Of a stretch of 23,752 nt of DNA, positions 1,978 to 21,215 are shown piece by piece. Position numbers and translations under genes: made by a program. The notes under the pieces are model-generated. The model was not told the origin of the DNA and made no database searches. It saw only the letters and a list, made by a program, of their open reading frames with translations. Source of the stretch: Promethearchaeota archaeon (lineage in GTDB: Archaea; Asgardarchaeota; Lokiarchaeia; Sigyniarchaeales; SOKP01); assembly GCA_016926735.1 (NCBI GenBank), contig JAFGOA010000087.1, forward strand, positions 1-23,752, in the 5' to 3' direction. Position 1 is the first letter of the stretch. Each line of letters begins with the position of its first letter.

Positions 1978-2203
1978 TTGATTTAAATTAATACCTTTTG
2001 TTATTGCTATCTCTAGATTAAAATTAATAAAATCATTGAAAATCTTACTTTTTTATTATCTATTGGTTTTTATTTTATTTTAATCCTAATTATTCAATAA
2101 TAGAGAAAGACCACATGAAATATTTTTAAATATTATGAAAAAATAAATTAAAAATATCAATTCTTACATTTAATTATTATATAAATTATTGAGTTTTATT
2201 TCT

Positions 2204-3127
2204 ATGATTCGGTTAATCCTTATTTTTCAACAACAATCAGGCGAACTTTTATATAGTTATTCTCTTCAAGAAGAAATAAAGATTGATCTTTTTAGTACCA
2301 TTATTTCAGCAATAACAAAATTTACAAATGAGTCTTTTAATGGAGAAAATTCCTCTTTAAAAAATATACAAATTGGTGAATATCTTATATATGTTTATCA
2401 GATTTATGAAAATTCTTTGAATGTAGTGTTTATTTGTGATCATAATGATGAGAAAATAATAAATAAGATAATACCAGATATTTCTCAAATTTTTTTAGAT
2501 TTTAAAGAATTATTTTCATCTGATATAGGTGATTTAGAGCAATTACAACATTTTACATTTAAATTATCAGCAATAATCGCTTCGGTTAGTAAAACTATCT
2601 TAAATGAAGAGATCCCACTAACTCAAGAAGCAATAAATAAGACATTATTGAATTATAAAGGAACAATTATAACAAATCTAAAACAAAAATTTGAAAAAAT
2701 AGAAAATAAACTAATACTTCTTTATGAAAATGAAGATAATGTAATTAAGAAAAAACAAATCTTAAATAAAATTTGTAATATAAAAAAAAAATTAGCAGAT
2801 GAAGAATCTTATAAAGAATGGAATGAAGAATTGAATAAAATTTTAAATATAATTAAAGATCAAGAAGTTAGACTTAATTATTATCTAAAGAAAATAGAGG
2901 AAGCTTTAAAAAGTGAAGATTTTAAATCTATATATCCTTTTCTTTATTCTTTTTGTGAAAAACTACAACATTTTGGAAAAAAAAGTCTTATTAAAAAATA
3001 TAGACAAATTGCGGAGATTCTTATTGATGAAAGAAAGGTTTCTGAAGATGAAATCCTGTATGCGAGAAAAGAAATCGCAAAAATAAGCTTTAATCTTCAA
3101 GATTTTTATCCAGATGAAAAATTATAA
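2204..3127 (+). CDS. N-terminal longin/roadblock-like domain protein with helical C-terminus
   Basis: ILIFQQQSGELLYS...DLFSTIISAITKFTNE...LKNIQIGEY..YVY...VVFICD is a longin-type beta-beta-alpha-beta-beta-beta pattern. ATG at 2204 preferred over TTG at 2189. Confidence 0.65.
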   Translation: MIRLILIFQQQSGELLYSYSLQEEIKIDLFSTIISAITKFTNESFNGENSSLKNIQIGEYLIYVYQIYENSLNVVFICDHNDEKIINKIIPDISQIFLDFKELFSSDIGDLEQLQHFTFKLSAIIASVSKTILNEEIPLTQEAINKTLLNYKGTIITNLKQKFEKIENKLILLYENEDNVIKKKQILNKICNIKKKLADEESYKEWNEELNKILNIIKDQEVRLNYYLKKIEEALKSEDFKSIYPFLYSFCEKLQHFGKKSLIKKYRQIAEILIDERKVSEDEILYARKEIAKISFNLQDFYPDEKL

Positions 3128-3310: not shown

Positions 3311-6300
3311 ATGAAATCAATAAAAAGATCAAAAAGAATAACGCAAATATATATAATCTTATCTATTATCATAATATCAAATATATTCTTTATTTTATCC
3401 GATGGAATTCTCAATAATTCTCAGACTGATCTCAACAATAATGAACGTGAAGAGGATCCAAACCCATTATCAATATTAAAAACAAATGCTTTTGGTGAAG
3501 CTGATTGGTGGGATCATTCATATGAATATCGAATGTTGATCAATATAACAAACCCATATCCTTATGATATTGAAAATTATGGAGTTAATATTTCTTTTAC
3601 TTACAGTAATTTACTATCAGAAAATAAGATACAATCAGATTTAGATGATATTAGAATAATAGAAAATGATATTTTGAAAAATTATTATGTTAAAAAAGAT
3701 TATCCTAGTGTTGGAATTGCAACTGTTTGGTTTGATACAAATATTTTAGCAAATTCAATTGAGACAGATACATATCTCTATTTTGGTAATCCCTCTGCTG
3801 TTAACAATGCTTCTTCAGATAGTTCAGAAAGTTTTGGATGGATTAAAAATGGAGATTTTGAAATTGATATAAGTAGTGCTACAAATTTTGATCCTTTTGG
3901 TTGGTCCTTTAGTAATAACCCCGTTGATACTATCGTAGGACTCTCACAAGATTATCCTGATGAAAATACACCAATAGGAGACTTTGTAAATTGTTTAATC
4001 GATGATACAACTGGTGATCATAGAATTGGTAGCGGTGTTTATGCGTATAAATGGGGTGTTAATACAAATACACCAGCAGGTAGCTCTGTAAATGATTATG
4101 CTGGAACATTATTTTCATATCCTTTTAAAGTTCCTACAATAAATGGAGGAGATATATATTTAAAGCTTTTTAGGAATATAAGAACCTATCATTTTGAAAG
4201 AAAAACACTTAATCCTAAAAACGATGAAATTCAGAAAGATGGTTATTTTATTAGAGTCCTAAATGCATCAGATTATAATTCTGATCCAGATACTCATAGT
4301 GATGTAGATATTCAACAATCTAGTTATGAAAATTATCTTGAAGCGTATGATGGATTTGCAAGAAAAACAGCATTTTGGAGTAATGAAAAAGATCTAATAC
4401 AACTTCATGATGGAAGTAATTTTGTTCATGACGACGATATTATCAAAAATACAGGCAGTTCTCAAGAATTAACTGGATATATGAATCTTGATTTAACACA
4501 ATATATGGGTGAAACATTATTTTTCGAAATAGGAGCTTGGGGTGAAGAAACTACTGAAAAAAATGCTTTTTTCCAAGTAGATAGTTTAGAATTTAATTAT
4601 TTTATAAGTACTTCTCTAAATGAAATACAAGCACGTAGATCAGATATTACTGTTGTAGTGCGAGATATCGATGGTCAATTTGTTCCCAATGCAGAAGTTT
4701 ACCTAATAAATAATTCTGCTACAATTCCAATAGTAGATTCAAAAATATCTTCGACTGTGGATGGTTCTGCTGAATTTATAGGGATTTTAAATGGTATCTA
4801 TAATTTCACGGTGAATTATACAATGGGTTCTTATGAAGCAGAAGTATATAATAGTACAAAATTAAATAAAATTCTCTATGAATTTGATGGAAAAGAATTT
4901 ACAGTAGAAATCTATGTTAATTTATGGACAATTAATTTTGAATTTACTGATTCAGATGGAATCCCCTTTAACTATGGGTATTTAAAAATTAAAGATGATA
5001 AAGCAGGTACAACATTAAGAACAATTAATCTCGATTCAGAAGGTAAAGCTACTTTTAGATGGCTAAATACAGCATATTATTATTATGAACTCTATTACAA
5101 CAATGAAGATTATGCAGATAGTCCATTTTTACTGAATCAAAGTAATTATATTTATCGTTCGGATTATGAGAGTGTAAAAGAGCAACAAAAAGTTATTTCT
5201 GTTGTAAATAATAATCAAGCTCCTTCGGGTGAATCTTGGTATTTAATAAATCAATATGTCTATTCTAATGGATCTTCATCTTTTAATAATAGAAATATTA
5301 TTCAAGCAAATATTACTCTAACCGATATGACAGATCAGTTGGTTAATGTATCAATCTATTATATAGATGAGGACAATTCAACAGGAATAGGAGATGAAAA
5401 TCTGATATATTTTGAGGAAGATTATGGTTATGGTGTATATAACGATTTTATTTCTCTTGATTTTCTCTCAATTGAAAATACTAAATTAGAAAGTGAGAAT
5501 TTTAACGTTTATGGATTAAAGATTGTAATTTATGGCTTAAATAGCTCAACTTGTAATGGATTAGTTATGGTTGATTCAATTGAGACCTGTCATATTTTTA
5601 ATAAAACAGAATTATCAAGATTGAATATAAGAGTTATTAATATGAATGATTTATTCCCAGAGGGTCAACCATTAAATGCTCTCATTAGAGTTGAGGATGA
5701 TTCAGGAACACCTTTAATTAATTTAACATCAATTGCTGTGAGAGATGGTTATGCTTATGGAGAAAAAAATGCATATGATATCCCTTTTTGGTTCTTTAAA
5801 GATTATAATTACACTTTCAGAATAGATGTTCTTAATTATACAGATGTTGAATTCAACATCACATCTATAGGCGATTCTCGATGGATACCTACAGGAGCAA
5901 TACAGTCATATGAACACTATTTCAATTCGACTATGATGATAGAATTTAATGTTATTTTTGAAACAGAATTCAATATATCATCATATAATACAGCAATTTT
6001 CAATGTTACCCATACAAATCAAGTTCAATGGGGAGAGAATCTTTATTATAAATTGGATTTTATGTATACTGAAGATGATGGAGAAACATGGGAGTATGTG
6101 ACAAATCCTGGAGCAACATGCAGATTATATGTATATTTACAAGGAGAGTCAGAAATATTATTACAAAGGTCTTTTCAAAATAATGGAAATGGAACTTTTA
6201 CTTTAATATTAAACTCAAGTGTTTTATCGGCAGGATATGATTCTAAAACGTATACAATGATGATTACAGGGAATAAACCAGGATATCCTTTACCGAATGA

Positions 6301-7663
6301 AGTATTTAAAGTCTCTACAATAAATGCTGTACCAGCAGAGATGAGCGCCTACGATCATGATACCCTTATAGAACTTCCTTTTGGGGAATATGAAGCCTCT
6401 TTTAATGAACTAATACAGATGACAGTACAATATTATGATAGTTTAACACATTTCGTATATGAAGATGTTTTATTAACTTATGAATGGATTAATCTGGATC
6501 CTGTAATAATACAACCAGATCCAATAAACATTGGATATTACACATTTACGCTAAACACTTCAGATGCTTTAAGTACAGGACTAGAAAGTATAAAGATTAA
6601 AGCATATCTTGAAAACCACTCATTAATTGGAGGATATTTTGAAATTGAACTAACAATAATGGAGAGAAATACAAAATTAAATGGAGAAATTAATCCGCAA
6701 CCAATTAGTATGGAGATTTGGGTAGAAGATTTCCAATATTTTGTATATGAATATACTGATGCTGAAACAAGTCAATTACTTAGTGGGCTTAGTATAGCAA
6801 CGTTTAATTGGTATGAAATGGATAACTCAGGTTCTTTCCTAAACTCTAGTGGAGGAGGATCATTAATTTCAAATATTAATAAAACATATACATTAGATTT
6901 TAACACAGGATACCGAAATCCAGGATTTTATTTAATAACAGTATCATTGAAAAAGGATAACTATGAAAGAAAACAAATGACGCTCATAATTAATATAAAA
7001 TTAAGAGAAATGGAATATGATCTTACTGCTACAAATCTCAAAGGCAACCGAATAAATATTGCTCATGGAACTCAAATTGAATTTCAATTACAGATAAATG
7101 ATCTATCAAGAGGAGGTATATTACTTCAAAATGCTGATGTTTCTATAATTTTAAATCAAGTTAAATATAACTTTACTGAAACATCACCTGGAATTTATAT
7201 ATATAGTTTAAGTACAACTCAATTTGATGCTTTCTTTACATCTTATATTTTATCTGGTACATTAGAGATACAAGTTGCTAATTTTACATCAATAGAAATC
7301 GGTTTAACTGTTGTTATAAAGATGGAAGAAATTTTTCCAGGAATACCAACATTCTATTTTCTGTTGCTTATTTCTGCCATCATCGCAGTAACTGGAAGTT
7401 TAGTGGCATATAGAGTAATTCATTACGCTAGAATCCCAAATTATGTCAAAAAAATAATGAAAGTCCGAAAAGTAATAAAATCGAAGAAGAAATTTATAGA
7501 ACCTATAAAAGCACCTAGTAAGGAAGCAATGATTGTTTCTATGTTAGGAGATGAATGGAAACAGATTGGAATATCATTGAATAAGAAATTAGATGTTAAA
7601 GGGAAAGCAAAGCTAATAAAGAAAGAGAAAATAACAAAACAAGGAGAAGATGTGATGAAATAA
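3311..7663 (+). CDS. large membrane-anchored cell-surface glycoprotein (DUF2341-like N-terminal domain, Ig-like beta-rich repeats, C-terminal TM and basic cytoplasmic tail)
   Basis: 1450 aa. Basic N-terminus plus hydrophobic signal/TM. WWDHSYEYRMLINITN...DLDDIRI...TVWF...YLYFGNP resembles DUF2341. About 30 N-x-S/T sequons. C-terminal TM (FYFLLLISAIIAVTGSLVAY) followed by a Lys-rich tail. Confidence 0.8.
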   Translation: MKSIKRSKRITQIYIILSIIIISNIFFILSDGILNNSQTDLNNNEREEDPNPLSILKTNAFGEADWWDHSYEYRMLINITNPYPYDIENYGVNISFTYSNLLSENKIQSDLDDIRIIENDILKNYYVKKDYPSVGIATVWFDTNILANSIETDTYLYFGNPSAVNNASSDSSESFGWIKNGDFEIDISSATNFDPFGWSFSNNPVDTIVGLSQDYPDENTPIGDFVNCLIDDTTGDHRIGSGVYAYKWGVNTNTPAGSSVNDYAGTLFSYPFKVPTINGGDIYLKLFRNIRTYHFERKTLNPKNDEIQKDGYFIRVLNASDYNSDPDTHSDVDIQQSSYENYLEAYDGFARKTAFWSNEKDLIQLHDGSNFVHDDDIIKNTGSSQELTGYMNLDLTQYMGETLFFEIGAWGEETTEKNAFFQVDSLEFNYFISTSLNEIQARRSDITVVVRDIDGQFVPNAEVYLINNSATIPIVDSKISSTVDGSAEFIGILNGIYNFTVNYTMGSYEAEVYNSTKLNKILYEFDGKEFTVEIYVNLWTINFEFTDSDGIPFNYGYLKIKDDKAGTTLRTINLDSEGKATFRWLNTAYYYYELYYNNEDYADSPFLLNQSNYIYRSDYESVKEQQKVISVVNNNQAPSGESWYLINQYVYSNGSSSFNNRNIIQANITLTDMTDQLVNVSIYYIDEDNSTGIGDENLIYFEEDYGYGVYNDFISLDFLSIENTKLESENFNVYGLKIVIYGLNSSTCNGLVMVDSIETCHIFNKTELSRLNIRVINMNDLFPEGQPLNALIRVEDDSGTPLINLTSIAVRDGYAYGEKNAYDIPFWFFKDYNYTFRIDVLNYTDVEFNITSIGDSRWIPTGAIQSYEHYFNSTMMIEFNVIFETEFNISSYNTAIFNVTHTNQVQWGENLYYKLDFMYTEDDGETWEYVTNPGATCRLYVYLQGESEILLQRSFQNNGNGTFTLILNSSVLSAGYDSKTYTMMITGNKPGYPLPNEVFKVSTINAVPAEMSAYDHDTLIELPFGEYEASFNELIQMTVQYYDSLTHFVYEDVLLTYEWINLDPVIIQPDPINIGYYTFTLNTSDALSTGLESIKIKAYLENHSLIGGYFEIELTIMERNTKLNGEINPQPISMEIWVEDFQYFVYEYTDAETSQLLSGLSIATFNWYEMDNSGSFLNSSGGGSLISNINKTYTLDFNTGYRNPGFYLITVSLKKDNYERKQMTLIINIKLREMEYDLTATNLKGNRINIAHGTQIEFQLQINDLSRGGILLQNADVSIILNQVKYNFTETSPGIYIYSLSTTQFDAFFTSYILSGTLEIQVANFTSIEIGLTVVIKMEEIFPGIPTFYFLLLISAIIAVTGSLVAYRVIHYARIPNYVKKIMKVRKVIKSKKKFIEPIKAPSKEAMIVSMLGDEWKQIGISLNKKLDVKGKAKLIKKEKITKQGEDVMK

Positions 7664-8742
7664 TGCCAATTGGTTTAATAGTAATGAAATGGAGTAGTAG
7701 GTTAGGAGCCCAGATTTTAGAAAAATATCCAAAAGAAGTAGAAGTAACAGATGAGACATTAATGCAAATTTATGCGTCACATGAATATGGAGGAGAGGGA
7801 GGTATTGTAAGCTTTTTTGTGAGGTCATTAAACATTACATCTTTTTATGCAGGCCCAGAAAAATCTATCTATGTTATATTATTTTTAAATTTAGAAGAGG
7901 ATCCTGATGAATATGAAGATGCATTGATCAATGGATCAAGATTAATTCTTAAAAATTTAGAAAATGATGCTTATAAAGCTTTGATCCCATCTATATTTCA
8001 ACGAATATCTGCTTATCCAAAATACAATGATGAGCAAAAGTTAGCAATAATCTACAATGATGAAGTAAACAGATTAATTATTAATAGATTAAGAGAGGAA
8101 GGTGTATTTAGTAAATCTGAGCTCAAAATATGGTTAAAAGATGTATATAGAGGTCTTTTAACAGATATTGATAGTGTTTTAACTGAACTTATTAAAAAAG
8201 AAGTTATAAAAGAAAGTTCAGTAAAAGGTACACTATCTGAGATGATTTTTCTTTTAAATGATTTAATAATGATAAGGAGACCTCCCATTGATCTATATAA
8301 TAATCCCGTTGAAAATGGACTTCCAGAACAATTTATTGACGATTATAAAAGACAAATAACAACCTTCTTTGAATCATATCTCCCGAATGAAGACGATAAT
8401 CTGAAAGTATTAGAGATGATTCTTGATCCTGAAATATATCTTGTTTTAAGACTTCTCAGAAAAAACATGGCTTCAAGAAGTATGCTTGAGAAATTAAAAG
8501 CTCGTGGACTTGATGATATTGATGAGACTTTAAAAAAATTGTGGGATGCTAAAATGATTAGTGTTTTTCAAGATAAAAATCAAACAGAATACTATGCTTT
8601 AATAACAGATTTTTACATTAGGAAACTATACCCGAAATATATTCTGAATAGGATTATCCAACAATATGAGGTTAAATCCAAATCTAACGAGGTTCTTTTA
8701 GAATATTTAAATGTTCTTGAAAATAATTTTTCAAAAAATTAA
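7663..8742 (+). CDS. longin/uDENN-like N-terminal domain plus two probable winged-helix repeats
   Basis: 359 aa, start overlaps the upstream stop (TAATG). N-terminal W..RLGAQILEKYP resembles a uDENN/longin start. Two internal repeats: LIINRLREE...DIDSVLTELIKKEVIK and LVLRLLRKN...DIDETLKKLWDAKMIS. Confidence 0.6.
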   Translation: MPIGLIVMKWSSRLGAQILEKYPKEVEVTDETLMQIYASHEYGGEGGIVSFFVRSLNITSFYAGPEKSIYVILFLNLEEDPDEYEDALINGSRLILKNLENDAYKALIPSIFQRISAYPKYNDEQKLAIIYNDEVNRLIINRLREEGVFSKSELKIWLKDVYRGLLTDIDSVLTELIKKEVIKESSVKGTLSEMIFLLNDLIMIRRPPIDLYNNPVENGLPEQFIDDYKRQITTFFESYLPNEDDNLKVLEMILDPEIYLVLRLLRKNMASRSMLEKLKARGLDDIDETLKKLWDAKMISVFQDKNQTEYYALITDFYIRKLYPKYILNRIIQQYEVKSKSNEVLLEYLNVLENNFSKN

Positions 8743-8749
8743 TTTTTTA

Positions 8750-9805
8750 TTATTTTTTTTCTATTTTATTTTTATTCATCAATTCTTTCATTTCTAAAGA
8801 TTTTTCATAAAATTGTTTGCTTAAATTATCATCTCCTAATTCTAAACATAAATCAGAAATTTGTTCATATAAATGTAAGGCTTCAGGTAAAGCTCCTCTT
8901 TCTATTGCTAGTTGTGCTTCACCAATTAAAATATCTCTTTCAAAAAGAGGTTTTAATAGAGATATATTTGTATTGATCTCTAAAATATCGGAAATTATAA
9001 GAATCATTTTTTCTCTGTTATTTGGATCAATAGCAACCATAGAATACGTTTTTAACCCTATTATTTCTTCAATCTTTTGAATACTTAATGCACCATCTAA
9101 ATCTTGTTTATTTCCAATTACGGCACTATTTGCATAAGGTGCTTCAGATTTTATAATTTCCAAGAAATATCGACTTTTTTCTACATTCTCTAGAGTTGAA
9201 TCCGTAATAATTAATACAGCATCGCTTCCTTCTATAAAATTATTCCATAAATAACTAAATTGTTCTTGACCAGCGAAATCCCATAATTTAAAAATAAGTT
9301 TACCTATCTTAATTGTTGCAATCTTTCCTGTGATGGTTGGAATATGTTGCATGGGAATTTCTTGATCTTTAATTAATTGTGTTGTAGTCGTTTTTCCAAC
9401 CCCAGAAAATCCAACTAATGATATTTTAGCACCTAAACTTTTATGAAGTCCATCGATTCTTGAATCAATGATTTCTTTAAATCCCTCTTTATCACCACTC
9501 TCAATAAGGTCAAAGTAGAAGTCTGAGAAATCTTTTTTTAATTTTTTCAATTCATTAAAAACCAAGTCTACTTCATCTGCTATTCCAGTGACTAAAATAA
9601 TTATCAGATCTTTTTCTTTATCTAATATGTAAAATATTTTTTGTTTAAAGATTATATTATCTCCTAAATCATCTGTAGCTCCAAATTCAAGATCTCTCTT
9701 AAGATTTTTCAAAAATTCATTGAGTATTTCTTTTGATATTGCTTTAGCAAAGATTTGTTCGTATATTATTTCATTATTCTTTAAAATATATATTTGTCTT
9801 AGCAT
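8750..9805 (-). CDS. longin/roadblock-fused Arf/Rab-like small GTPase with C-terminal helical hairpin
   Basis: G1 GFSGVGKT, G2 PTIT, G3 WDFAGQ and G4 NKQD. About 120-aa N-terminal longin-like domain and a TPR/MIT-like C-terminus. Confidence 0.88.
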   Translation of the reverse strand: MLRQIYILKNNEIIYEQIFAKAISKEILNEFLKNLKRDLEFGATDDLGDNIIFKQKIFYILDKEKDLIIILVTGIADEVDLVFNELKKLKKDFSDFYFDLIESGDKEGFKEIIDSRIDGLHKSLGAKISLVGFSGVGKTTTTQLIKDQEIPMQHIPTITGKIATIKIGKLIFKLWDFAGQEQFSYLWNNFIEGSDAVLIITDSTLENVEKSRYFLEIIKSEAPYANSAVIGNKQDLDGALSIQKIEEIIGLKTYSMVAIDPNNREKMILIISDILEINTNISLLKPLFERDILIGEAQLAIERGALPEALHLYEQISDLCLELGDDNLSKQFYEKSLEMKELMNKNKIEKK

Positions 9806-12381: not shown

Positions 12382-13314
12382 TCATTTTTCTTGAGCTTCT
12401 ATCTCAGATAAAATAACTTTCCAGCTTTTATCAATTCCTTCTTGAAGTTTAATTAATTGTTGTTCGGAAACTGTTCGAAATCTTTTTTGTTTGGAAAGAT
12501 ATTCGATTAATGGAATTCTTTTACTTGGATCTACATATTTTTTACTTGCTTTTGAAATTGTTTTAACGCCATTTTCAACTTCATACAAAATCCATAATCC
12601 AGATTTTATAGCTAATCTTGCCATTTCAATAGTATCTTCAGCTCCATATCCCCATCCAGGAGGACAAGGAGCTAAGATGTGAATATATTTACATCCTTCG
12701 ATATCTTTGGCTTTTTTAAATTTTTCATATAAGTCTAATGGTTCAGATACACTACAAGTAGCTATATAAGGAATTTCATGTGCTTCCATAATTCGAGGTA
12801 GATTCTTTTTATATCGTTGTTTTCCGAATGGAGTTGTTGTAGTAATTGCAGAATGAGGTGTTGAGCTGCTTCTTTGAATTCCAGTATTCATATATGCTTC
12901 ATTATCATAACATACATATAAAATATTTGAATTTCTCTCAGCAGCACCACTTAGTGCTTGTATACCAATATCTGTTGTTCCACCATCCCCCGCAAATACT
13001 AATGTAGTCATTTTATCCCATCCTTGATTTGGAAATCTATATGCTTTAGCTTTAAATGCCGCATCAACTCCAGTAGCAGCAGAAGCCCCAGCAGCAAAAG
13101 CCATATTTATAAATGGGAAATTCGGAGCTGTTTTAGGCCATAGACCAATAACAACATTTAAACACGATGCAGGGGTAACTAAAGCTGTTTTAGGACCTAA
13201 AGCTTTCATTGCCCATCTTAGAGCAATTTCAAGACCACATCCAGCACAACATGAGTTACCTGGAAGAAAATATTCTTCACATGCTTCATTTAACGTTTCT
13301 TTTATTGTAACCAT
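12382..13314 (-). CDS. porB: pyruvate/2-ketoisovalerate:ferredoxin oxidoreductase beta subunit
   Basis: CAGCG, TPP-binding GDGG...YDNEAYMNTGIQRS and PCPPGW motifs. Confidence 0.92.
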   Translation of the reverse strand: MVTIKETLNEACEEYFLPGNSCCAGCGLEIALRWAMKALGPKTALVTPASCLNVVIGLWPKTAPNFPFINMAFAAGASAATGVDAAFKAKAYRFPNQGWDKMTTLVFAGDGGTTDIGIQALSGAAERNSNILYVCYDNEAYMNTGIQRSSSTPHSAITTTTPFGKQRYKKNLPRIMEAHEIPYIATCSVSEPLDLYEKFKKAKDIEGCKYIHILAPCPPGWGYGAEDTIEMARLAIKSGLWILYEVENGVKTISKASKKYVDPSKRIPLIEYLSKQKRFRTVSEQQLIKLQEGIDKSWKVILSEIEAQEK

Positions 13315-14571
13315 TTATTTCACCTCTAATATTCCATCCCAGAGAGTACCATGAATTAGATTATTTGGTAATTCTCCAGTTTCTTTTATTTTAATTAGGG
13401 TCTTTAATTCTTCTTTTTGTTGTACTAAAGTTACCTCGCGCCCTCCTATTCCTGCCATCATTGGTAATACTTTAGTAGTTATACCTGTATCATAAAGACA
13501 GGATAAAACATCACCACTTACAGGACCACCTGTGGGGGAGCCAAATGCAGTAGCCCGATCCATAACACCAAGAACTTCTACTTTTTTTGCTATTTTTCGA
13601 ATATCTTCTGTAGGAAATGGACGATAATGTCTTAATTTTACCATTCCAACTTTATATCCTTCTTCACGTAGTTCCTCAACTGCTTGTTCCATTTGTAAGG
13701 CTAAATCACCATAAATTATAATTCCAACATCTGCATCATCCATATTGAATTCTTCAATTAGTCCATTACCATAACTTCTTCCAAAGGTTTTCTCAAACTC
13801 TTTTGAAGCTATTTTTATTTTATCTTTAGTTTTCATAAGAGTATCTTGAATTTTCATCCTGAATTCACTATAAAATCCAGAAGGCATTATAAGATTGCCA
13901 TGCATCATAGGTCTTTCAGGATCAAGAAATATTTGAGGCCATCCCTTTTCATCAGGTAATGGTGGAAGGTATTGATCTACAAGATCTTGATCTTCAATTA
14001 TAACTGGTTTTGATGTATGAGAAAGAATAAAACCCCCATACGCAACAAATTTGGGTAATAATACATCATAATCCTCACAGACTTTATAAGACATTAAAAT
14101 TTCATCATATATTTCTTGATGCGTAGCACAAAACGCACTCATCCAACCAGTATCACGAGCATTTATTACATCTGAAAAGTCAGCCCATATATTCCAAGGA
14201 GGAGCTGCACCTCTGCTTGCAATAGCTGTGACAATAGGTAATCTTGTTCCAGCAGCCCAATGAATCATTTCATTCATATAAAATAAACCTTGTCCAGATG
14301 TAGCTGTAAAGGTTCTCGTTCCAGCTATACTCGCTCCAATAACAGAAGCCATTACTGAATGTTCACTCTCTACTTTAATATATTGAGTTCCTGGCATTTC
14401 TCCTCCATCAACAAATTCAGATAATTTTTCAACTACAGTAGTTTGGGGAGTAATAGGATATGCACTAATCATTTGGACTCTTGCAGATTTTGCAGCATAA
14501 GCAGCTGCAACATTCCCTTTAATAATTTTTGTTTCTCTTTTTTGTATAATATTATTCGTTTTACTTATCAT
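13315..14571 (-). CDS. porA: pyruvate/2-ketoisovalerate:ferredoxin oxidoreductase alpha subunit
   Basis: AYPITPQT, VESEHS, RTFTATSGQGL, RDTGW and RPFP motifs. ATG at 14571 (GTG at 14580 is the alternative). Confidence 0.92.
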   Translation of the reverse strand: MISKTNNIIQKRETKIIKGNVAAAYAAKSARVQMISAYPITPQTTVVEKLSEFVDGGEMPGTQYIKVESEHSVMASVIGASIAGTRTFTATSGQGLFYMNEMIHWAAGTRLPIVTAIASRGAAPPWNIWADFSDVINARDTGWMSAFCATHQEIYDEILMSYKVCEDYDVLLPKFVAYGGFILSHTSKPVIIEDQDLVDQYLPPLPDEKGWPQIFLDPERPMMHGNLIMPSGFYSEFRMKIQDTLMKTKDKIKIASKEFEKTFGRSYGNGLIEEFNMDDADVGIIIYGDLALQMEQAVEELREEGYKVGMVKLRHYRPFPTEDIRKIAKKVEVLGVMDRATAFGSPTGGPVSGDVLSCLYDTGITTKVLPMMAGIGGREVTLVQQKEELKTLIKIKETGELPNNLIHGTLWDGILEVK

Positions 14572-14908
14572 CTGATTCACTCTCTCTAATCATCTTAATT
14601 TTATGAGTTGGACACTCTTTTGCGCATATTCCACATCCTTTACAATATATTAAATCAATTTCAAAAGACCCATTCTCATTTTGTTTGATAACTCCTTCAG
14701 GACAATACATCCAACATAATCCGCATCTATTACATCCTTCAAGTATTACAGGTCGAAATGTTCTCCAATCTCCTGTAGTTCCAATACTTCCTTCAATTGG
14801 TAAGGAAATTGGAATTGGAGGTAGTTCTTTCCAATTTTTATATTCCTGAACTTTAGGTCGTTTTTCTTTAGATTCATTTATTTTTTTCCATTCTTCTGAT
14901 TCACTCAT
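14561..14908 (-). CDS. porD: 2-oxoacid:ferredoxin oxidoreductase delta subunit (2x[4Fe-4S])
   Basis: TGDWRTFRP, CNRCGLCWMYCP and CKGCGICAKECP. Confidence 0.92.
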   Translation of the reverse strand: MSESEEWKKINESKEKRPKVQEYKNWKELPPIPISLPIEGSIGTTGDWRTFRPVILEGCNRCGLCWMYCPEGVIKQNENGSFEIDLIYCKGCGICAKECPTHKIKMIRESESDDK

Positions 14909-14910
14909 GA

Positions 14911-15483
14911 TTACTCCTCCTTAACAGAATTGAAAGCATCTTTAGCTACTTTCATATTTTTTGATAATCTTTTTTCTCCAAATTCATCTCTTATGATGTT
15001 TTCCATAACTTCAAGATCATAAAATCCTGTTATTTTTCCAAATGCTCCAAGCATAGGAATATTTAAAATAGGACCACTTGACAACATAAAAGAATTATCA
15101 ATGCAAATCTTTGTTGCATCAACTAGATAAATCTTAATATTTTTGGGTAGATTAGTATTATCTATGGGTTTATTACTATTTATAAGGAGAATTGTTCCTT
15201 CCTTTATCGAATTTCGAATATTGGGAATTTCCAAAAGAGAGGTGTCAAATATTAACATATAATTAGGATTAACGACACTATCATATGTTTTTATCATTTT
15301 ATTTTTTGAAATTTTAGTAAATGCCCAAATAGGAGCACCTCTTCTCTCTGCACCGATAATAGGGATAGCAATAGCATCTTTAAACCCTTTATCATAAGCA
15401 AATTGAGCCAAAAGTTGACTTGCAGTTACAGCAGTTTGTCCTCCCCTCGCTGCAAATGAAATCTCTATTATTCCGTTTGCCAT
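14911..15483 (-). CDS. porG: 2-oxoacid:ferredoxin oxidoreductase gamma subunit
   Basis: EI.F.ARGGQ.AVTA, GAERRGAP, VDATKI and NIPMLGA motifs. ATG at 15483 preferred over TTG at 15498. Confidence 0.9.
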   Translation of the reverse strand: MANGIIEISFAARGGQTAVTASQLLAQFAYDKGFKDAIAIPIIGAERRGAPIWAFTKISKNKMIKTYDSVVNPNYMLIFDTSLLEIPNIRNSIKEGTILLINSNKPIDNTNLPKNIKIYLVDATKICIDNSFMLSSGPILNIPMLGAFGKITGFYDLEVMENIIRDEFGEKRLSKNMKVAKDAFNSVKEE

Positions 15484-15536
15484 CACTTTTTTTTCCAACT
15501 TTTTCTTTTTGATATTTGTTATTTTAATTCATCATT

Positions 15537-15682: not shown

Positions 15683-15976
15683 TGATAATTCAAACCTTAT
15701 ATTATTGTTAAAAAATATTAAAAGTCTAATACAATAAAATTCCGATTATATTAAAAATTTACTATAAAAGATTATAAATCGTAATTTTAAATCATAAAAA
15801 TAGTTGAAACAAAAAAAAAATCACTATTAATTATTTAAAGTAGATAATAATTTGAAATAAAGAAAAAAAGTGTAAAAATACAGATGTTCTTTCTTTATAA
15901 AAATTTTTAACTATTCTTTAACTTTTGATAAATAGTTGTAGCAATTTATGTTCAAAGAGTCTATGAAATTTAAATT

Positions 15977-16546
15977 ATGTCCAAATTCATTAGTGAACCA
16001 GAGGAAGAGTTTAGTTTTAATTGCCCCTCTTGTAAAGATGGTCATTTAAAAATCATTAAAAATCTTTATGATCTTCCAGATAAAGATAAAATGTTGATTA
16101 TTAAATTTGAATGTGATAATTGTAATTATCATCAAAATGATATTATTCCATATACTACACGTATAGAACCCGGGAAATTAACTTTAAAGATAACAAATGA
16201 AGAAGATTTAAAGTCAAAAGTATATAGATCTCCAACTGGTAAATTGGAAATACCTGAATTAGAATTATCTGTAGAACCTGGACCAAGTGCAAAATTTTAT
16301 TATACTAATATTCAAGGTATATTATTTAGATTCGAAAATGCTATAGAAATACATCTTAATAATGAAGAATTATCTAAAGATGAAAAGTTAGAAGTTGTAA
16401 AGATTCTTAATAACTTAAAAGAAGCCATAAATGGTAATTATCCCTTTACATTAATTATTGAAGATCATTCAGGAGGTAGTTATATTATTCCTACAGATGA
16501 TTCCAAACTTTCTTACACAAAATTAAATATTTCTGATAATGTATAA
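15977..16546 (+). CDS. ZPR1-type zinc-finger protein
   Basis: CPSC...FECDNCNY, EEDLKSKVYRS, IPELEL.VEPG, TNIQGIL and FTLIIEDHSGGSYI are typical of archaeal ZPR1. Confidence 0.9.
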   Translation: MSKFISEPEEEFSFNCPSCKDGHLKIIKNLYDLPDKDKMLIIKFECDNCNYHQNDIIPYTTRIEPGKLTLKITNEEDLKSKVYRSPTGKLEIPELELSVEPGPSAKFYYTNIQGILFRFENAIEIHLNNEELSKDEKLEVVKILNNLKEAINGNYPFTLIIEDHSGGSYIIPTDDSKLSYTKLNISDNV

Positions 16547-16644
16547 TTTAGAAAATTTTTTTTTTTATCAGCCTTTCTACTAAATTAAGTAATATATTAA
16601 GTAAAAAAGTAGATTTATAATTTTATAAGAAAGGTCAAATAGAT

Positions 16645-17861
16645 ATGGTAGATAATATAAAACGGGTTGGAATTCTAACAGGGGGCGGAGATTCGATAAA
16701 GATTTTCCTTTACGATCCGCATACTGCCCTGGTTTAAATAGTGTTATTTATGGCATTATGTTAAAAGCCTTTGATTCGAATGTTAAATGTGTTGGTATTC
16801 TTAAAGGATGGAAAGGTTTTATGGAAAATCTTACAATACCCCTTAACATTGAAGAACATGATGATCTTCATACAATAGGAGGAACTTTTTTATATACTAG
16901 CAGAACAAATCCATTTGAAGAATTACAAAAAGTAACATCGAAAGAAGAGAAGGAAAAAATAAAGGAAGAAATAGCTAAAAAAATGGCAAAACAATTTGAA
17001 CTTTTAGATATTGATGCCTTAATTGCTATTGGAGGAGATGATACTCTTGGTGTTGCAAATTCCATGCATAAATACGGAAATGTTAACGTTGTAGGATGCC
17101 CTAAAACAATCGATAATGATTTAGCGGGAACAGATTATACTTTTGGTTTTTGGAGTGCAGTTCAATTAGCATCTAATACTATAGATAATCTTACAACAAC
17201 AGCACGATCTCATCAAAGAATATTTGTTGTTGAAATTATGGGAAGAGATGCAGGATTTTTAACAATGTATAGTGGAATTTCAGGTGGAGCAGATATTATT
17301 CTTGTTCCTGAGACTCCTTTTAGCTTTCAAAATCATATAGTCGATGTTTTAAAAAGAAGGGTTAATGCAGGTCATAAGTATCACATAATTGCTTGTTCTG
17401 AAGGCGCTTATCCTTCAGATGAATCGTTAGAAAAGGATTTTAAAACAATATCAAAAGAAACTATTAATCAATTGCCAAAAGATGTATTTGGTAATCCTTT
17501 GCTAACTAGACTAAATATATCACAAATTTTAACAAAAGAAATAAATCTTAGAGAGGACTTAAAAGCAGAATTTAAGAAAAATGATACAAATTTTGAATGT
17601 AGGGATGTTGTATTAGGCCATACAATGAGAGCAGGTACTCCAAACTCTTTTGATAGAATATTAGGATTACGATTAGGTCTTGCTGCAATGAAACTAGTAT
17701 TAAATAATGATTTTGGTAAAATGGTTGCTCTTAAAGGAACTAATATTAAGGGTGTTCCTCTTTCTGAAGGATCGAAAAAGAAATATATTAATCCAGATGA
17801 AGATGAAGTAGAATTAAGAAATCTTTTGGTTAAGACAAGATACAAATCAAGAGAAAATTAA
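16645..17861 (+). CDS. pfp: PfkA-family phosphofructokinase, PPi-type signature; join(16645..16690,16723..17861), 394 aa after removal of a 32-nt insertion
   Basis: Exon 1 gives MVDNIKRVGILTGGG(D) and exon 2 continues CPGLNSVIYGIMLK. Motifs GGDDT, PKTIDND, TFGF, VEIMGRDAG and LGHTMRAG are present. GGDD plus PKTIDND is the PPi-utilising signature. Confidence 0.88.
16691..16722 (+). other. candidate 32-nt bulge-helix-bulge (tRNA-type) intron in the pfp mRNA
   Basis: Central helix GCGG(16685-88)/CCGC(16717-20), 3-nt bulges AGA(16689-91) and AUA(16721-23), internal stem UCG-UAAAG/CUUUA-CGA. Cutting after the second nt of each bulge yields G|AC TGC CCT = D-C-P in frame. Confidence 0.75.
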
Positions 17862-17873
17862 TTTTTTTTTTTT
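17862..17873 (+). terminator. oligo-T terminator candidate after pfp
   Basis: A run of about 12 T immediately after the stop codon. Confidence 0.5.
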
Positions 17874-17945
17874 GAAAAGCTCTTACTTAATCTATAAAAA
17901 GATTTTAAAAAATTCTAACTATATTTCATTCTATATAAAAGATGT

Positions 17946-18212
17946 TTATTGAATTATATCAATTATATTTTCAAAAATTTTTCCAAAAGTAATGATCTCA
18001 TTTATAGAAGCTCTAAACGCAGTAATATCGTTACTTTCAATGTAGAATTTAAGATTATTCTCTCCTTCTTTTTCCATAGTTAATTTAGATCTTTTAGAAT
18101 TAATTTTATTAAATTCAGGTAAAAAAGTATTGAAAGAGATATCTCTTATTTCTGATGTTTTAAAATAAAAGTTTACAGAGGATTTAATTGAATAATCATC
18201 TTGTTTATACAT
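17946..18212 (-). CDS. pcc1: KEOPS complex subunit Pcc1
   Basis: 88 aa with RSKL...LKFYIESNDITAFRASIN motif, at its canonical position after rpl37ae. Confidence 0.85.
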   Translation of the reverse strand: MYKQDDYSIKSSVNFYFKTSEIRDISFNTFLPEFNKINSKRSKLTMEKEGENNLKFYIESNDITAFRASINEIITFGKIFENIIDIIQ

Positions 18213-18502
18213 TATTTTTCAACTAGATCTAACTCTTTTTGTTTTCTTTTTGAAACTCTAAAAGATTCAGCTCCTCTTGGAGTTTCGATAGAATATGCTC
18301 CACCTGTAAATTTAGCTTTACATTTTTTACAATACCAAATGCCAGTTGATAATCTTTGAACTGATCCTTTAGTTTCGCATTTGGGGCATTTTATATTATT
18401 ACTTTTCATTTTCTCAAGGATCATACGAGTTCTTTTTCTTACTACTGATCCATATCTTGCTCCATATTTTCCTGTAATTCCGACCTTTTTAGTCTTACCC
18501 AT
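18212..18502 (-). CDS. rpl37ae: 50S ribosomal protein L37Ae (eL43)
   Basis: KKVGITGKYGARYG, CPKC, GIWYCKKC and FTGGAY. Confidence 0.97.
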   Translation of the reverse strand: MGKTKKVGITGKYGARYGSVVRKRTRMILEKMKSNNIKCPKCETKGSVQRLSTGIWYCKKCKAKFTGGAYSIETPRGAESFRVSKRKQKELDLVEK

Positions 18503-18643
18503 ATATAATCACATTTGATTCTTCTAAATTTACTTAAATAATTAAAAACAATATAAAATAAAAATTTTAGCCAAAAATATAAATAATATTAAGTTATTTT
18601 GGACAAAAGACTTATTCTATCATAAAATCAAAAAAAAAGATAA

Positions 18644-19471
18644 TTAGGTTGAATTCTTTACATATTGCCAAATGTTTAATTCTTCTCTTAGATTTTTTGC
18701 AATTTCTAATGCTTTTTCACCAAGCATTTTTATCTCTTCAATAGTAAAGGTTGCTATCCCACTTTTTTGGATACTTGTAATCTCTTTTTCTGTGACTGAT
18801 AATGTAATTCTTCCATCACTTACTAATTCTTCTGGAAGACTTGGATCTAAGAATATAATATCGTCAATCTTTCCAAAAGTAATTGCCAACGGAAGTTCAT
18901 TTATTAATTCTTTTCCATTGAGATATTTTCCAGTCCATCTGGGTACTTCATCAACCCATTCTCCTTTTGGAATACGGGACGATATTAAAGCCGCTAAGGC
19001 ACTCACACCTCCACAATCAATCATATTTCCTCCATGATTGATCACATACATATCAACAAACAATATATAAACTGCTTTTTCTTCTTTTATACATAATTTT
19101 TGAGTTTGTACACAATCAGCATGTCTTATTCCTCTATCAACAACTCTTGCTAATTCAATTGATTCTTCATCGGGAGGACCTCTCTCGAATAAGGGGGAAG
19201 CTAAAGGTAATAATTCAGCCATAATAGTGCAAACACCTTCATTTGGTAAATCGGGAAAAGGTTCACCAATATCATATTTTACTCCTGTGATTATTCTAGT
19301 ATCACCTAAAGTAACATCAGCAGACCCTTCTGCTGAAGATATTGTATCTGTTTTAATACAAAAAGGTCTATAATCCCAAAGTCCTCTTCCATCAATTCTT
19401 TCTCCTTTCTTTAAATTGTTAGTGATATAATTCTTTTCAATTGTTGATATTACTCGTTTAATATCCATCAT
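18644..19471 (-). CDS. rrp42: exosome complex component Rrp42
   Basis: RIDGRG, AEGSA.V.LG.T, PFPD.PNEG, GPPDEESIELARVVDRGIR. Confidence 0.96.
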   Translation of the reverse strand: MMDIKRVISTIEKNYITNNLKKGERIDGRGLWDYRPFCIKTDTISSAEGSADVTLGDTRIITGVKYDIGEPFPDLPNEGVCTIMAELLPLASPLFERGPPDEESIELARVVDRGIRHADCVQTQKLCIKEEKAVYILFVDMYVINHGGNMIDCGGVSALAALISSRIPKGEWVDEVPRWTGKYLNGKELINELPLAITFGKIDDIIFLDPSLPEELVSDGRITLSVTEKEITSIQKSGIATFTIEEIKMLGEKALEIAKNLREELNIWQYVKNST

Positions 19472-19488
19472 TTTTTATTTTTACCTCT

Positions 19489-20241
19489 TTATTGTTGTAT
19501 TCCCTCTTGAATCTGAATATACTTCGATTTTAATGCATCCAATTGCATGTGGTATATTTTTTCTAAAGCATCTTTTAACATATCGAGAGACTTAGTCATT
19601 TCTTCTTGATTCATTTTTCCATCAAATTGTAATAAAGATATTTCATTATTGAACCATGTTATAGCACAAGGCATATCAGAATCACCAGCTTTATCTTCAA
19701 TTCCAGATAAATCCGTTATAAGTTGTCCATCTACTTTTCCTACAGCACATGAAGTAACTAAACTTCGCATAGGTATGCCCGCATCTGCAAGTGCTAACGC
19801 TGCAACTGTGGTACTTGCGCATCGTGTACCTCCATCAGCATCAATTACTTCAATAAATATTTCAAAACTTGTTCCAGGGTATAGTTCAAGAAATAAAACA
19901 GGTTCGAGACATTCTGAAATAATCATAGAAATTTCTTTTTCTCTTCGACCAGGAGCAGGACGTTTTCTTTCAAATACAGAATATGTAGCCATCCTATAGA
20001 ATACTCTTAAAATCCCTTTGTCAGGTTTTGCTAAATGATGAGGATGTACCTCTCTAGGACCATACACTGACGCAAATATTTTATTGTTTCCCCATTCTAT
20101 ATAGGCACTTCCATCAGCATTCTTTATTACATTAACTTCCATTTTTATTGGACGTAGGTCTGTTAAACCTCTTCCATCTAAACGTAATCCATCATCACGC
20201 AATAACTTTTTGGGATATTCATCTTGAATTAATAATGTCAT
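19489..20241 (-). CDS. rrp41: exosome complex exonuclease Rrp41
   Basis: RLDGR, ADGSAYIEWGNNK, YGPRE, RREKEIS, ADGGTRCA and catalytic ED..GDSDMP. Confidence 0.97.
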   Translation of the reverse strand: MTLLIQDEYPKKLLRDDGLRLDGRGLTDLRPIKMEVNVIKNADGSAYIEWGNNKIFASVYGPREVHPHHLAKPDKGILRVFYRMATYSVFERKRPAPGRREKEISMIISECLEPVLFLELYPGTSFEIFIEVIDADGGTRCASTTVAALALADAGIPMRSLVTSCAVGKVDGQLITDLSGIEDKAGDSDMPCAITWFNNEISLLQFDGKMNQEEMTKSLDMLKDALEKIYHMQLDALKSKYIQIQEGIQQ

Positions 20242-21029
20242 TATTTAATACCTCTTCTTTCTATTTCATTTTTTATAAATCCTTCCATTCTATCTGTTAA
20301 ACCCGTTGTATGGGCCTCATTTTCTATTTTATAAATAGCTTCAATTAATAGTCGTTCATGTTCAATATCAAAACCTTTTAACCAAATACGACCATTTTGT
20401 GCGACAAAAATATTACAATTAGTTAAATTTTTCAACATTTTTATCATAGAACCATTACGTCCTATTATTCTTGGCACTTTTTGAGAATCAATTTGTATAA
20501 TTATTCCCCCCATCTTTTTACCAAGATATTTACCAGCTAAGGTTATTTCAGGAGAATTTAATCGATCTGCTGCAATTACTTTTCCAATAATTGCATCACC
20601 TATAAAAAGCTTTTCAGGAATTTCTGATTCTCTTGAATTTCCACGCATCCTTATCTTAGGATTCCTTTTTACAGTATTTTTAATCTTAAGAATTCCTGAA
20701 TATTTTGCATTAATATCACAAACATATTTTACGGGGTTCTTATCTAAGACGATCCCGATTATTTTATCTCCAATGTGGGGGGTATAAAAACCTCTTAATG
20801 GTATTACATTAATATAATTCTTTTTAATTTGTTTCAAACCAATTATAACAGAGATAATCTTATCTCCTTTTTTATTTAAGATCGCACCTCTACCAGGTAT
20901 ATAATTTTCTGTATCATCAGTTAATACTTCACCCGGTGCAACAATTTCACGTAGAGTTTCTTCATCTTCAAACTCATCATTTTGTTCTTGCTCTTCCTCT
21001 TCTTGTTCAAGTTCTTCGTTATTTTCCAT
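20241..21029 (-). CDS. rrp4: exosome RNA-binding cap protein Rrp4 (S1+KH)
   Basis: IV.PGEVL, VIPLRG.Y.P..GD.IIG, KVPRIIGRNGSMI, QNGRIW and AHTTGLT. ATG at 21029, with an acidic N-terminal extension. Confidence 0.95.
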   Translation of the reverse strand: MENNEELEQEEEEQEQNDEFEDEETLREIVAPGEVLTDDTENYIPGRGAILNKKGDKIISVIIGLKQIKKNYINVIPLRGFYTPHIGDKIIGIVLDKNPVKYVCDINAKYSGILKIKNTVKRNPKIRMRGNSRESEIPEKLFIGDAIIGKVIAADRLNSPEITLAGKYLGKKMGGIIIQIDSQKVPRIIGRNGSMIKMLKNLTNCNIFVAQNGRIWLKGFDIEHERLLIEAIYKIENEAHTTGLTDRMEGFIKNEIERRGIK

Positions 21030-21215
21030 AAAAATACACAATCATAAAATAAATAATAATAAACAAAATTTTCTTTTTTTTTCAAACTTAAAATAATTAA
21101 TCATTGACATAATAAAATTTTAATGAAATTTGGAGTTAAGAATCAACTTTTATTTCTAAAAAATCTAAAGGAAAAAATTTTTGAGAAAATTCAAAAATTT
21201 TATTTTTTTTTTATT

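Follow-up and report, generated by a model that had tools for sequence, protein, structure and literature searches.

The pre-mRNA of cbf5 is reportedly interrupted by an intron in Aeropyrum and Sulfolobus, as described by Watanabe in 2002 and Yoshinari in 2006. Introns of the bulge-helix-bulge (BHB) type in archaeal mRNA are reported for the cbf5 gene of Desulfurococcales and Sulfolobales (Yokobori 2009, PMC2738675), and the HVO_1309 mRNA of Haloferax volcanii is reported to be a substrate of the splicing endonuclease EndA (PMC7714728; PMC10485636). A review of 2023 lists no archaeal mRNAs other than these two, cbf5 and HVO_1309, as spliced by the tRNA endonuclease and regards more of them as probably undiscovered (PMC10485636). 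In the present work, a 23,752-nucleotide (nt) stretch of DNA from a Promethearchaeota archaeon (GenBank assembly GCA_016926735.1, contig JAFGOA010000087.1, positions 1 to 23,752; hereafter, the window) was analyzed, in which the phosphofructokinase (PFK) gene, pfk, is interrupted by a 32-nt insert at positions 16691-16722. With a probability of roughly 0.85, these 32 nt are a BHB intron of the pfk pre-mRNA that is cut by EndA and whose flanks are joined by an RtcB-type ligase; cleavage, ligation and a non-productive unspliced message are what we infer from the sequence. The genome to which the window belongs (G000) is a metagenome-assembled genome (MAG) in 238 contigs, 99% complete by markers. 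It forms genus g1 together with three congeners, and the labels g2, g5, g6 and g11 denote other genera of the same family.

The insert interrupts the PFK motif GGGD^CPGLN, where the caret marks the site of insertion. Exon 1 (16645..16690, plus strand) begins with the start codon and encodes MVDNIKRVGILTGGG plus the G of GAC, the Asp codon that the insert splits. The candidate intron (16691..16722, plus strand) follows, for which the register 16692-16723 would give an identical mRNA, and exon 2 (16723..17861, plus strand), matched by PF00365 and TIGR02483, runs from the AC of the Asp codon through CPGLN... to the stop codon at 17859-17861. When left unspliced, the frame that opens with the ATG at 16645 reads MVDNIKRVGILTGGGD, continues with unrelated residues and ends at the TAA at 16735-16737 after 30 amino acids (aa), and a 367-aa open reading frame (ORF) beginning at 16758 lacks the N-terminal PFK motif. 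The frame of this ORF is already open from 16725 (CPGLNSV...), upstream of the ATG at 16758, and read from there it matches PF00365 over profile positions 11-276 of 277 (E = 5.4e-83). The profile positions absent from exon 2 are exactly the first 10 of PF00365, and these are supplied by exon 1 (GILTGGGD). The best NCBIfam match of exon 2 was TIGR02483 (PFK_mixed), with 322 bits compared with a cut-off of 430; the score falls below the cut-off because the query lacks exon 1.

In silico removal of 16691-16722 (16690 joined to 16723) gave a single 394-aa frame with the start MVDNIKRVGILTGGGDCPGLN, which contains GILTGGGDCPGLN and in which the codon GAC and the motif GGGDCPGLN are restored; the predicted product carries the junction-spanning peptide ...GILTGGGDCPGLNSVIYGIMLK. 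Joined in this way, the exons encode a full-length PF00365 phosphofructokinase, including the N-terminal GGxxxG loop. When 30, 31 or 33 nt were deleted instead, the frame ended after 20, 21 or 19 aa, respectively. Among the 121 cut pairs within ±5 nt, two (16690/16723 and 16691/16724) yielded the intron-less mRNA, these two being equivalent because A repeats at both borders, and 39 further pairs kept the frame open but altered the motif. The ATG at 16758 could also serve a protein made in two pieces, with the 30-aa peptide and the 367-aa ORF translated separately, or with the short form working alone. Such an arrangement is very improbable, as the short form would lack about the first 20 residues of the PFK fold, including GGGDCPGLN, the codons at 16725-16757 are conserved as coding in all relatives, and introns of 31 and 30 nt elsewhere have no comparable restart, the stop abutting exon 2 in the thiF-like and nadE genes considered below.

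The minimum free energy (MFE) of the segment 16672-16738 was -19.1 kcal/mol (z = -2.0), and 8 of 200 shuffled sequences folded equally well. In the MFE fold, the exons pair at 16679-83/16727-31 and GCGG(A) pairs with (U)CCGC; a 3-nt 5' bulge and the intron hairpin are present as well. In the strict BHB form of the window sequence, the central helix of 4 base pairs (bp) joins the exon strand GCGG (16685..16688) to the intron strand CCGC (16717..16720), with an ensemble probability of 0.87, both strands being supported by the fold and by relatives; the bulges are AGA at 16689..16691 on the 5' side and AUA at 16721..16723 on the 3' side, and the intron hairpin occupies 16693..16715 (UCG, an A bulge and UAAAG, a 6-nt loop AUUUUC, then CUUUA and CGA), all on the plus strand. 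The outer exon helix of the fold, likewise on the plus strand, pairs CAGGG (16679..16683) with CCCUG (16727..16731); its conservation says little because both strands are coding (Gly versus Pro-Gly codons). By the canonical rule, EndA cleaves both 3-nt bulges behind their second base (PMC5829648; bioRxiv 10.64898/2026.10.13.758758). By this rule the predicted cuts fall after 16690 and after 16722, and the rule applied to the fold removes 16691-16722 and gives the exact intron-less mRNA; it holds also for an insert in rtcB and for ten other inserts of G000, described below. On folding of the transcript, the last bases of exon 1, GCGG, would pair with the 3' end of the intron, CCGC, and the resulting 4-bp helix would lie between two 3-nt bulges on opposite strands, with the intron hairpin at one end and, at the other, a helix between the two exons. 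A heterotetrameric (alpha-beta)2 EndA would then cleave behind base 2 in both bulges, and an RtcB-type ligase would join the exons, whereby the GAC codon and GGGDCPGLN would be restored and the 394-aa enzyme could be translated.

The first-pass annotation of this DNA had already reported the split motif, the 32-nt length, the stop after 30 aa and the 367-aa ORF devoid of the motif, as well as the 394-aa enzyme obtained by removal of 16691-16722 and the stops met when 30 or 31 nt are removed; all of these frames and coordinates were confirmed. From its account of the fold, the helix, the bulges and the intron hairpin were retained, whereas the MFE structure lengthens the central helix to 5 bp and the strict form, with a 4-bp helix and 3-nt bulges, lies 2.7 kcal/mol above it. 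The exon stem it had described combines, as a point of detail, two incompatible registers, G16684-C16724 plus G-U on the one hand and CAGGG/CCCUG on the other.

As a single fold with z = -2 is weak evidence, relatives were compared, and the weight of the argument rests on this comparison. The pfk gene was searched in 61 and then in 135 genomes; one locus was dropped and 129 loci were read, of which 115 came from the family of the window's genome and 14 from three other families of its order. In 26 of the 115 family loci, 31 or 32 nt interrupt exactly the same codon; these are all the carriers among the 129 loci, and they are distributed as 4/4 in g1, 10/37 in g2, 7/42 in g11, 4/9 in g5 and 1/6 in g6. 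The other 89 family loci and all 14 loci of the three other families had a contiguous GGGDCPGLN and no insert at this site. The BHB model was counted on an alignment of 25 distinct insert sequences (A1), in which 89.5% of the cells were paired, compared with 26-47% when the partner was slid by 1-3 columns; the observed pairing or covariation was reached by none of 500 shuffles. The central helix was paired in all 25 distinct sequences, with one double change from C-G to U-A, and double-sided changes were found in 6 pairs of the alignment (in the intron hairpin, 5 of 9 pairs). Exon and intron covary at locus L027, where a synonymous exon change from GGC to GGU is matched by a change from G to A in the intron, and at L101 the hairpin sequence is wholly rewritten with the same shape, while the first intron nucleotide (column 24 of A1, the third base of the bulge) varies freely. 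Compensatory changes of this kind maintain the BHB structure among the relatives, and its form is that of a pre-mRNA BHB intron, relaxed in the 31-nt variants.

The ratio of nonsynonymous to synonymous substitution rates (dN/dS) was 0.06-0.13 among carriers, over a dS range of 0.18 to 2.9, and 0.09 between a carrier and a non-carrier. Apart from a second, equally defined insert, the 26 carriers had no extra stops or frameshifts. The unspliced frame, broken after 30 aa, might suggest that the insertion killed pfk and that the gene is decaying, which is highly unlikely: the dN/dS of 0.06-0.13 implies that the carrier genes are not pseudogenes, no stops or frameshifts were found beyond those inserts, and the insert itself is conserved and covaries. 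Since the window comes from a MAG in 238 contigs, an error of assembly or binning or a chimeric contig might also be considered; this is scarcely credible, as the same insert occurs in 26 separately assembled genomes and in a salt-marsh metagenome contig from a run of a different study, which spans 16450-17312 with 65 substitutions and 0 gaps, including at the site. Two observations concern single genomes. The carrier locus L019 (genome G019, g6) has ATA where relatives have the ATG start, with an in-frame TGA two codons upstream, and genome G073 has two intron-less pfk loci on different contigs (L071 and L072), which could be a duplication, a strain mixture or contamination.

The second insert in pfk, 30 nt long, is located at GGD^DT in 18 of the 129 loci (g2, 11; g11, 6; g5, 1), for example at L029 (~1501-2631, minus strand), L035, L036, L037, L077 and L092, and both pfk introns were found together in ten loci. 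It is in frame, yet always contains 1-3 stop codons. Its borders are GGNGGAG on the 5' side and AC on the 3' side, as at the first intron, and its AU-rich hairpin, perfectly paired over up to 10 bp, shows compensatory changes. These lengths and stops bear on translational recoding, in which the ribosome would frameshift over the insert or bypass it, with no splicing of the RNA. In T4 gene 60 and in the 'byp' elements of yeast mitochondria, the ribosome bypasses short hairpin inserts, and the inserts described here resemble such elements in being short (29-32 nt) and hairpin-forming. Bypassing, however, needs matching take-off and landing codons, and no matching pair was found: GGA/GAU at the 5' end has no counterpart at the 3' end, and the 31-nt variants do not retain GAU. 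A frameshift would leave about 10 foreign residues in the phosphate-binding loop and would have to go in opposite directions in the 31- and 32-nt variants, and no frameshift could get past the stops of the 30-nt introns. Lengths of 30, 31 and 32 nt would require three recoding tricks, while excision explains all of them. The conserved feature is, moreover, a 4-bp helix with 3-nt bulges showing exon-intron covariation, and we know of no use that a ribosome has for a 4-bp helix so flanked. Recoding is accordingly regarded as improbable. Two other kinds of intervening element were rejected: a group I or group II self-splicing intron, because the insert has 32 nt compared with hundreds of nt for a ribozyme core and no Rfam family was matched in the window, and an intein, because an insert of 32 nt puts the host out of frame and there are 1-3 stops in the 30-nt relatives.

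Inserts of the same kind were found in other genes of G000. Including pfk, there are 11 inserts in 10 genes, each 29-32 nt long with a 4-bp central helix and with bulges that are mostly A-rich; the figure of ten genes is a floor obtained from an insensitive, homology-checked candidate list and is not a census. In a comparison with five relatives, base-exact inserts were set against contiguous orthologues. The ten further inserts are spread over nine genes besides pfk. For seven of them, an orthologue that lacks the intron or is full-length served as the comparison (nadE, the deoA-like and thiF-like genes, one site of an aldolase gene, an AIRS-family gene, an EF-2 paralogue and moxR). For the other three candidates (a POR-gamma-like gene, dnaG and the second aldolase site), the support is continuity of the Pfam match or of the motif only, in dnaG and at the second aldolase site that of the motif. 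The 30-nt insert of nadE (contig C143, 3080|3049, minus strand; predicted junction peptide KYGD-GGVD) was carried by G000 only among the genomes compared, the gene being contiguous in G001, G005 and G010; exon 1 matches NAD_synthase positions 2-143 to its last residue, exon 2 matches positions 144-242 from its first, and other candidates likewise begin or end in the middle of a Pfam profile. In the thymidine/AMP-phosphorylase-like (deoA-like) gene, 30 nt interrupt DKHST^GG (C50, 76346|76377, plus strand; carriers G000, G001, G002 and G005; contiguous in G010 and G044), and in the ThiF/E1-like gene, 30 nt interrupt GVGAL^GCE (C108, 9873|9842, minus strand; carriers G000 and G001; contiguous in G005, G010 and G044).

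The gene of the DeoC/LacD-family aldolase has two sites (C50, 42202|42169 and 42800|42769, minus strand; site b, 32 nt; carriers G000 and G002; contiguous in G001 and G010). The central helix in this gene reads GCGU/GCGC in G000 as against GUGU/ACAC in G002, again a case of covariation between exon and intron. The AIR-synthase (AIRS)-family gene (C62, 12419|12449, plus strand) has a 29-nt insert in G000 and G002 and is contiguous in G001, and the EF-2 paralogue (C188, 20430|20462, plus strand; predicted junction peptide HIDHG-K-TT) has a 31-nt insert in GHIDHG^KTT in all four g1 genomes and is contiguous in G010 and G044. For the MoxR ATPase (C235, 10294|10263, minus strand), the open frame is truncated in G000, G001 and G002 and full-length in G005, G010 and G044. 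The POR-gamma/IorB-like gene (C4, 54825|54856, plus strand) had the insert in all four orthologues found, with no intron-less orthologue among them, and the site in dnaG lies at 7775|7807 of C192 (plus strand).

An insert was also found in the gene of the putative ligase itself. Among the 126 family genomes in which rtcB was matched, five, belonging to three genera (G015, L217:284-313; G131, G031, G035 and G018, L221-L224), had the Pfam match interrupted at profile position 47. In these loci, 29 nt are inserted in GVGY^DINCG; UUGG and CCAA form a Watson-Crick central helix accompanied by two 3-nt bulges, the hairpin has 9 bp, and the cut rule restores the motif GVGYDINCG exactly. In such genomes the splicing ligase would depend on the splicing of its own message, possibly forming a self-referential feedback loop.

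As for the enzymes, two genes of G000 score above the Pfam cut-off for PF01974 (tRNA_int_endo; 100.8 and 66.3 bits; 203 and 202 aa; in the regions 8963-9190 of contig C33 and 19024-19269 of contig C100), and one of these EndA paralogues has what we take to be a catalytic Tyr...His...Lys pattern, which the other lacks. Asgard EndA is reported to be an (alpha-beta)2 enzyme with a broad-specificity L1 loop (PMC5829648), and two EndA paralogues are reported for 44 of 60 Asgard genomes (bioRxiv 10.64898/2026.10.13.758758). The two paralogues of G000 fit an (alpha-beta)2 enzyme with the L1 loop and would provide an endonuclease capable of cutting relaxed BHBs, their alpha and beta assignment and the L1 loop being putative and following PMC5829648. 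All three congeners encode RtcB, as do 126 of the 135 family genomes. ARAGORN gave 52 tRNA calls for G000, 19 of them flagged as containing introns, and since several were implausible ('introns' of 245 and 736 nt), nothing was drawn from these calls.

The possibility that EndA cuts the pfk message without rejoining it, so that the insert would be a decay or silencing element and the gene effectively off in carriers, has to be weighed here. It would accord with the failure to find RtcB in the G000 assembly and is comparable to decay initiated by the tRNA endonuclease in yeast, where TSEN is reported to cleave mRNAs without ligation (PMC10485636). Against it stand the purifying selection in carriers, which is seen up to a dS of ~2.9 and includes exon 1 and the exact junction codon, the single copy of pfk in G000 (one match found in the genome), the same inserts in housekeeping genes such as nadE and the EF-2 paralogue, which are hardly likely to be switched off for good, and the wide occurrence of RtcB in the family. 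We therefore give it only a slight chance.

A number of results weigh against a BHB intron removed by splicing. Taken alone, the fold of the pfk insert with its flanks exceeds chance by little (z = -2.0). On the 25 distinct sequences, RNAalifold picked a competing exon-exon helix, GGCGG/CUGCC, and not the BHB; the strict BHB lies 0-6.2 kcal/mol above the MFE and is not the favored fold in most orthologues when these are folded in isolation. In the 31-nt variants this difference is 0.6-6.2 kcal/mol, and the 3' bulge is effectively 4 nt. The central helix had a probability of at least 0.5 in 4 of the 25 sequences and of at most 0.3 in 20 of them, which is low because the exon-exon helix competes, and in the second pfk intron the central helix is weak, with one G.A mismatch and two wobbles. 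By these modeled folds, the pfk inserts are relaxed BHBs; relaxed BHBs are reported to be cut only by (alpha-beta)2 and epsilon2 endonucleases (PMC5829648).

The genome-wide scans of G000 also belong on this side. A strict scan (hBHBh' motif plus ORF rescue) gave ~1270 and 1334 matches per strand as compared with 1183-1345 in shifted-cut controls, hence no excess; there was still none after the no-start-codon filter, and pfk itself was missed. Because it missed pfk and gave no excess, the strict scan is uninformative. A relaxed scan (BHB core plus ORF rescue) gave no bulk excess over shifted-cut controls either; in its list, limited to 25-38 nt and ranked by hairpin energy, pfk stood fifth, and the list served solely as a source of candidates. 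One of the scan candidates, in aEF-2 proper (C138), was rejected, as its N-terminal part is encoded by a single uninterrupted ORF both in G000 and in relatives. RtcB (PF01139) was not found in the G000 assembly, which is 99% complete and in 238 contigs, this absence being likely an assembly gap, no RNA run was listed with a match to positions 15900-18300 of the window, and the contigs of two metatranscriptome runs of the source study gave no match either; in the ~56% that was read of the run marked as possible source, the contig was not found.

Two more scan candidates were discarded: that in a nucleotidyl-transferase gene (C97), where the 'intron' itself codes for GWGTRLRPL, and that in an ACT/DUF711 gene pair, which was plainly false. 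Separately, in aEF-2 proper of G025, G006, G007 and G015 (L255, L256, L258 and L259), the first 200 residues hold one in-frame stop and the match is ~30 nt longer; these loci may contain further in-frame mini-introns. Another scan candidate of G000 (C49:240..276, plus strand) is situated at the C-terminus of a TnpB-like ORF (CPHCG...DADLNAARN), so that a BHB-like fold would lie near the end of the element; archaea are reported to have circular omega-RNAs that carry BHB motifs (PMC12558985).

The distribution of the pfk introns was examined on a FastTree phylogeny of the 129 pfk proteins with the inserts removed, which is a gene tree and possibly poorly resolved. Intron 1 required 20 changes for its 26 carriers, compared with 24.1 ± 1.3 for shuffled labels, and intron 2 required 15 changes for 18 carriers, compared with 17.1 ± 0.9; within g2, g11 and g5, the 18 observed changes were no better than the shuffled value of 18.8. 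Carriage of the pfk introns is thus scattered almost at random over the gene tree. Between genera, intron identity averages 0.74-0.83, with some introns identical at 100%, while four-fold degenerate sites are saturated at 0.32-0.45. This pattern could be explained by rapid loss and gain, by exchange through recombination or by strong sequence constraint. A blastn-short search of G000 for further copies of the pfk intron returned only AT-rich chance words. Most likely, the mini-introns are elements that are tolerated and may be mobile, and not regulators of individual genes. It also seems rather probable that BHB mini-introns of 29-32 nt have spread through many protein genes of the family, mostly in their most conserved motifs, and are quickly gained, lost or exchanged.

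The BHB intron proposed in the first-pass annotation is supported by the same-site insert in 26 related loci, the covariation, the purifying selection and the two EndA paralogues. Several checks that bear on its proposals gave results in the same direction: orthologues in relatives share the site with compensatory changes, no relaxed selection was seen (dN/dS 0.06-0.13 among carriers), a contig of an independent study holds the insert with 0 gaps, and a scan of the genome followed by a homology check led to ten more inserts in nine genes. Its suggestion of an on/off switch for glycolysis and gluconeogenesis received no support, in view of the near-random carriage on the pfk tree and the look-alike inserts in unrelated genes, and its comparison with IRE1/RtcB splicing is an analogy only.

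Within the window, the regions neighboring pfk are 12382-15498 (minus strand), 15977-16546 (plus strand) and 17946-21041 (minus strand). The neighboring genes encode four subunits of 2-oxoacid:ferredoxin oxidoreductase, a ZPR1 zinc-finger protein, Pcc1 and ribosomal protein L37ae, and they also include exosome genes, namely, those of two RNase PH subunits and Rrp4. A 1450-aa ORF at 3311-7663 (plus strand), adjoined by a 359-aa ORF at 7663-8742 (plus strand), had no Pfam match at E <= 1e-4. The ORF at 8750-9805 (minus strand) encodes a 351-aa protein with an Arf/Roc/Ras-type small-GTPase domain at residues 125-254; small GTPases of this type are typical of Asgard genomes.

A BHB intron in mRNA is of a known kind, represented by crenarchaeal cbf5; new are the affected genes, the number of inserts and their occurrence in an Asgard lineage. 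No report of BHB introns in Asgard protein genes, in pfk or in rtcB was found in a literature search that left most subscription journals and supplements outside its range, and the accessible text of the preprint on Asgard tRNA introns does not contain the word 'mRNA' (bioRxiv 10.64898/2026.10.13.758758). To the two described mRNAs, the present analysis would add a gene of central metabolism, no fewer than nine further genes of that genome and, in relatives, rtcB, all of them Asgard, and splicing of protein genes may be common in this lineage. Gene callers will report the interrupted genes as truncated, as split or as pseudogenes, and reconstructions from Asgard MAGs of glycolysis, NAD synthesis, nucleoside salvage and E1-like enzymes may be wrong. 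In a cell with no nucleus, translation can start on nascent RNA, and such cells must avoid translating unspliced messages. The patchy carriage, together with an intron similarity between genera that exceeds that of neutral sites, raises the question of mobility. If the proposed splicing is true, protein-only mRNA splicing would be routine, without a nucleus, in the closest prokaryotic relatives of eukaryotes, and these archaea would offer a living model of a host coping with the spread of introns into coding sequence; debates on introns at the origin of eukaryotes would become testable in a prokaryote.

Among the described systems, the splicing of HAC1/XBP1 by IRE1 and RtcB is similar in that a protein-only endonuclease and RtcB-type ligation act at paired stem-loops and change the frame; it differs in its unrelated IRE1 kinase/RNase, its other RNA motif and its regulation by stress, and for the inserts described here no sign of regulation was seen. 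Translational bypass shares the short hairpin inserts in coding sequence and the intact protein, but has matching take-off and landing codons, which are absent here. The BHB introns of Asgard tRNA genes are alike in motif, predicted enzymes and similar sizes, as well as in repeated gains and in the two EndA paralogues (bioRxiv 10.64898/2026.10.13.758758), whereas the pfk host is coding, so that excision has to be base-exact to keep the frame and the outer helix is built from codons.

In HVO_1309, as proposed for pfk, an mRNA BHB is cut by the archaeal splicing endonuclease and the flanks are joined; that case, however, is a single one, in a euryarchaeon with an alpha'2-type enzyme. The BHB of HVO_1309 is said to lie in the leader and not to split a conserved catalytic motif. 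The cbf5 gene is uninterrupted in the lineage studied here, forming one open frame in G000 and in those 40 of the 41 genomes searched in which a match was obtained. The likeness to the cbf5 introns lies in hosts with a heteromeric (alpha-beta)2 EndA, in a patchy distribution with gain and loss and in having been missed by annotation (PMC2738675; PMC10485636). The differences are the other gene and the other phylum (Crenarchaeota for cbf5), the splicing, which is shown experimentally for cbf5 and is predicted here, and the number of hosts, since in the present case at least ten genes of one genome are involved, and a gene sometimes carries two introns.

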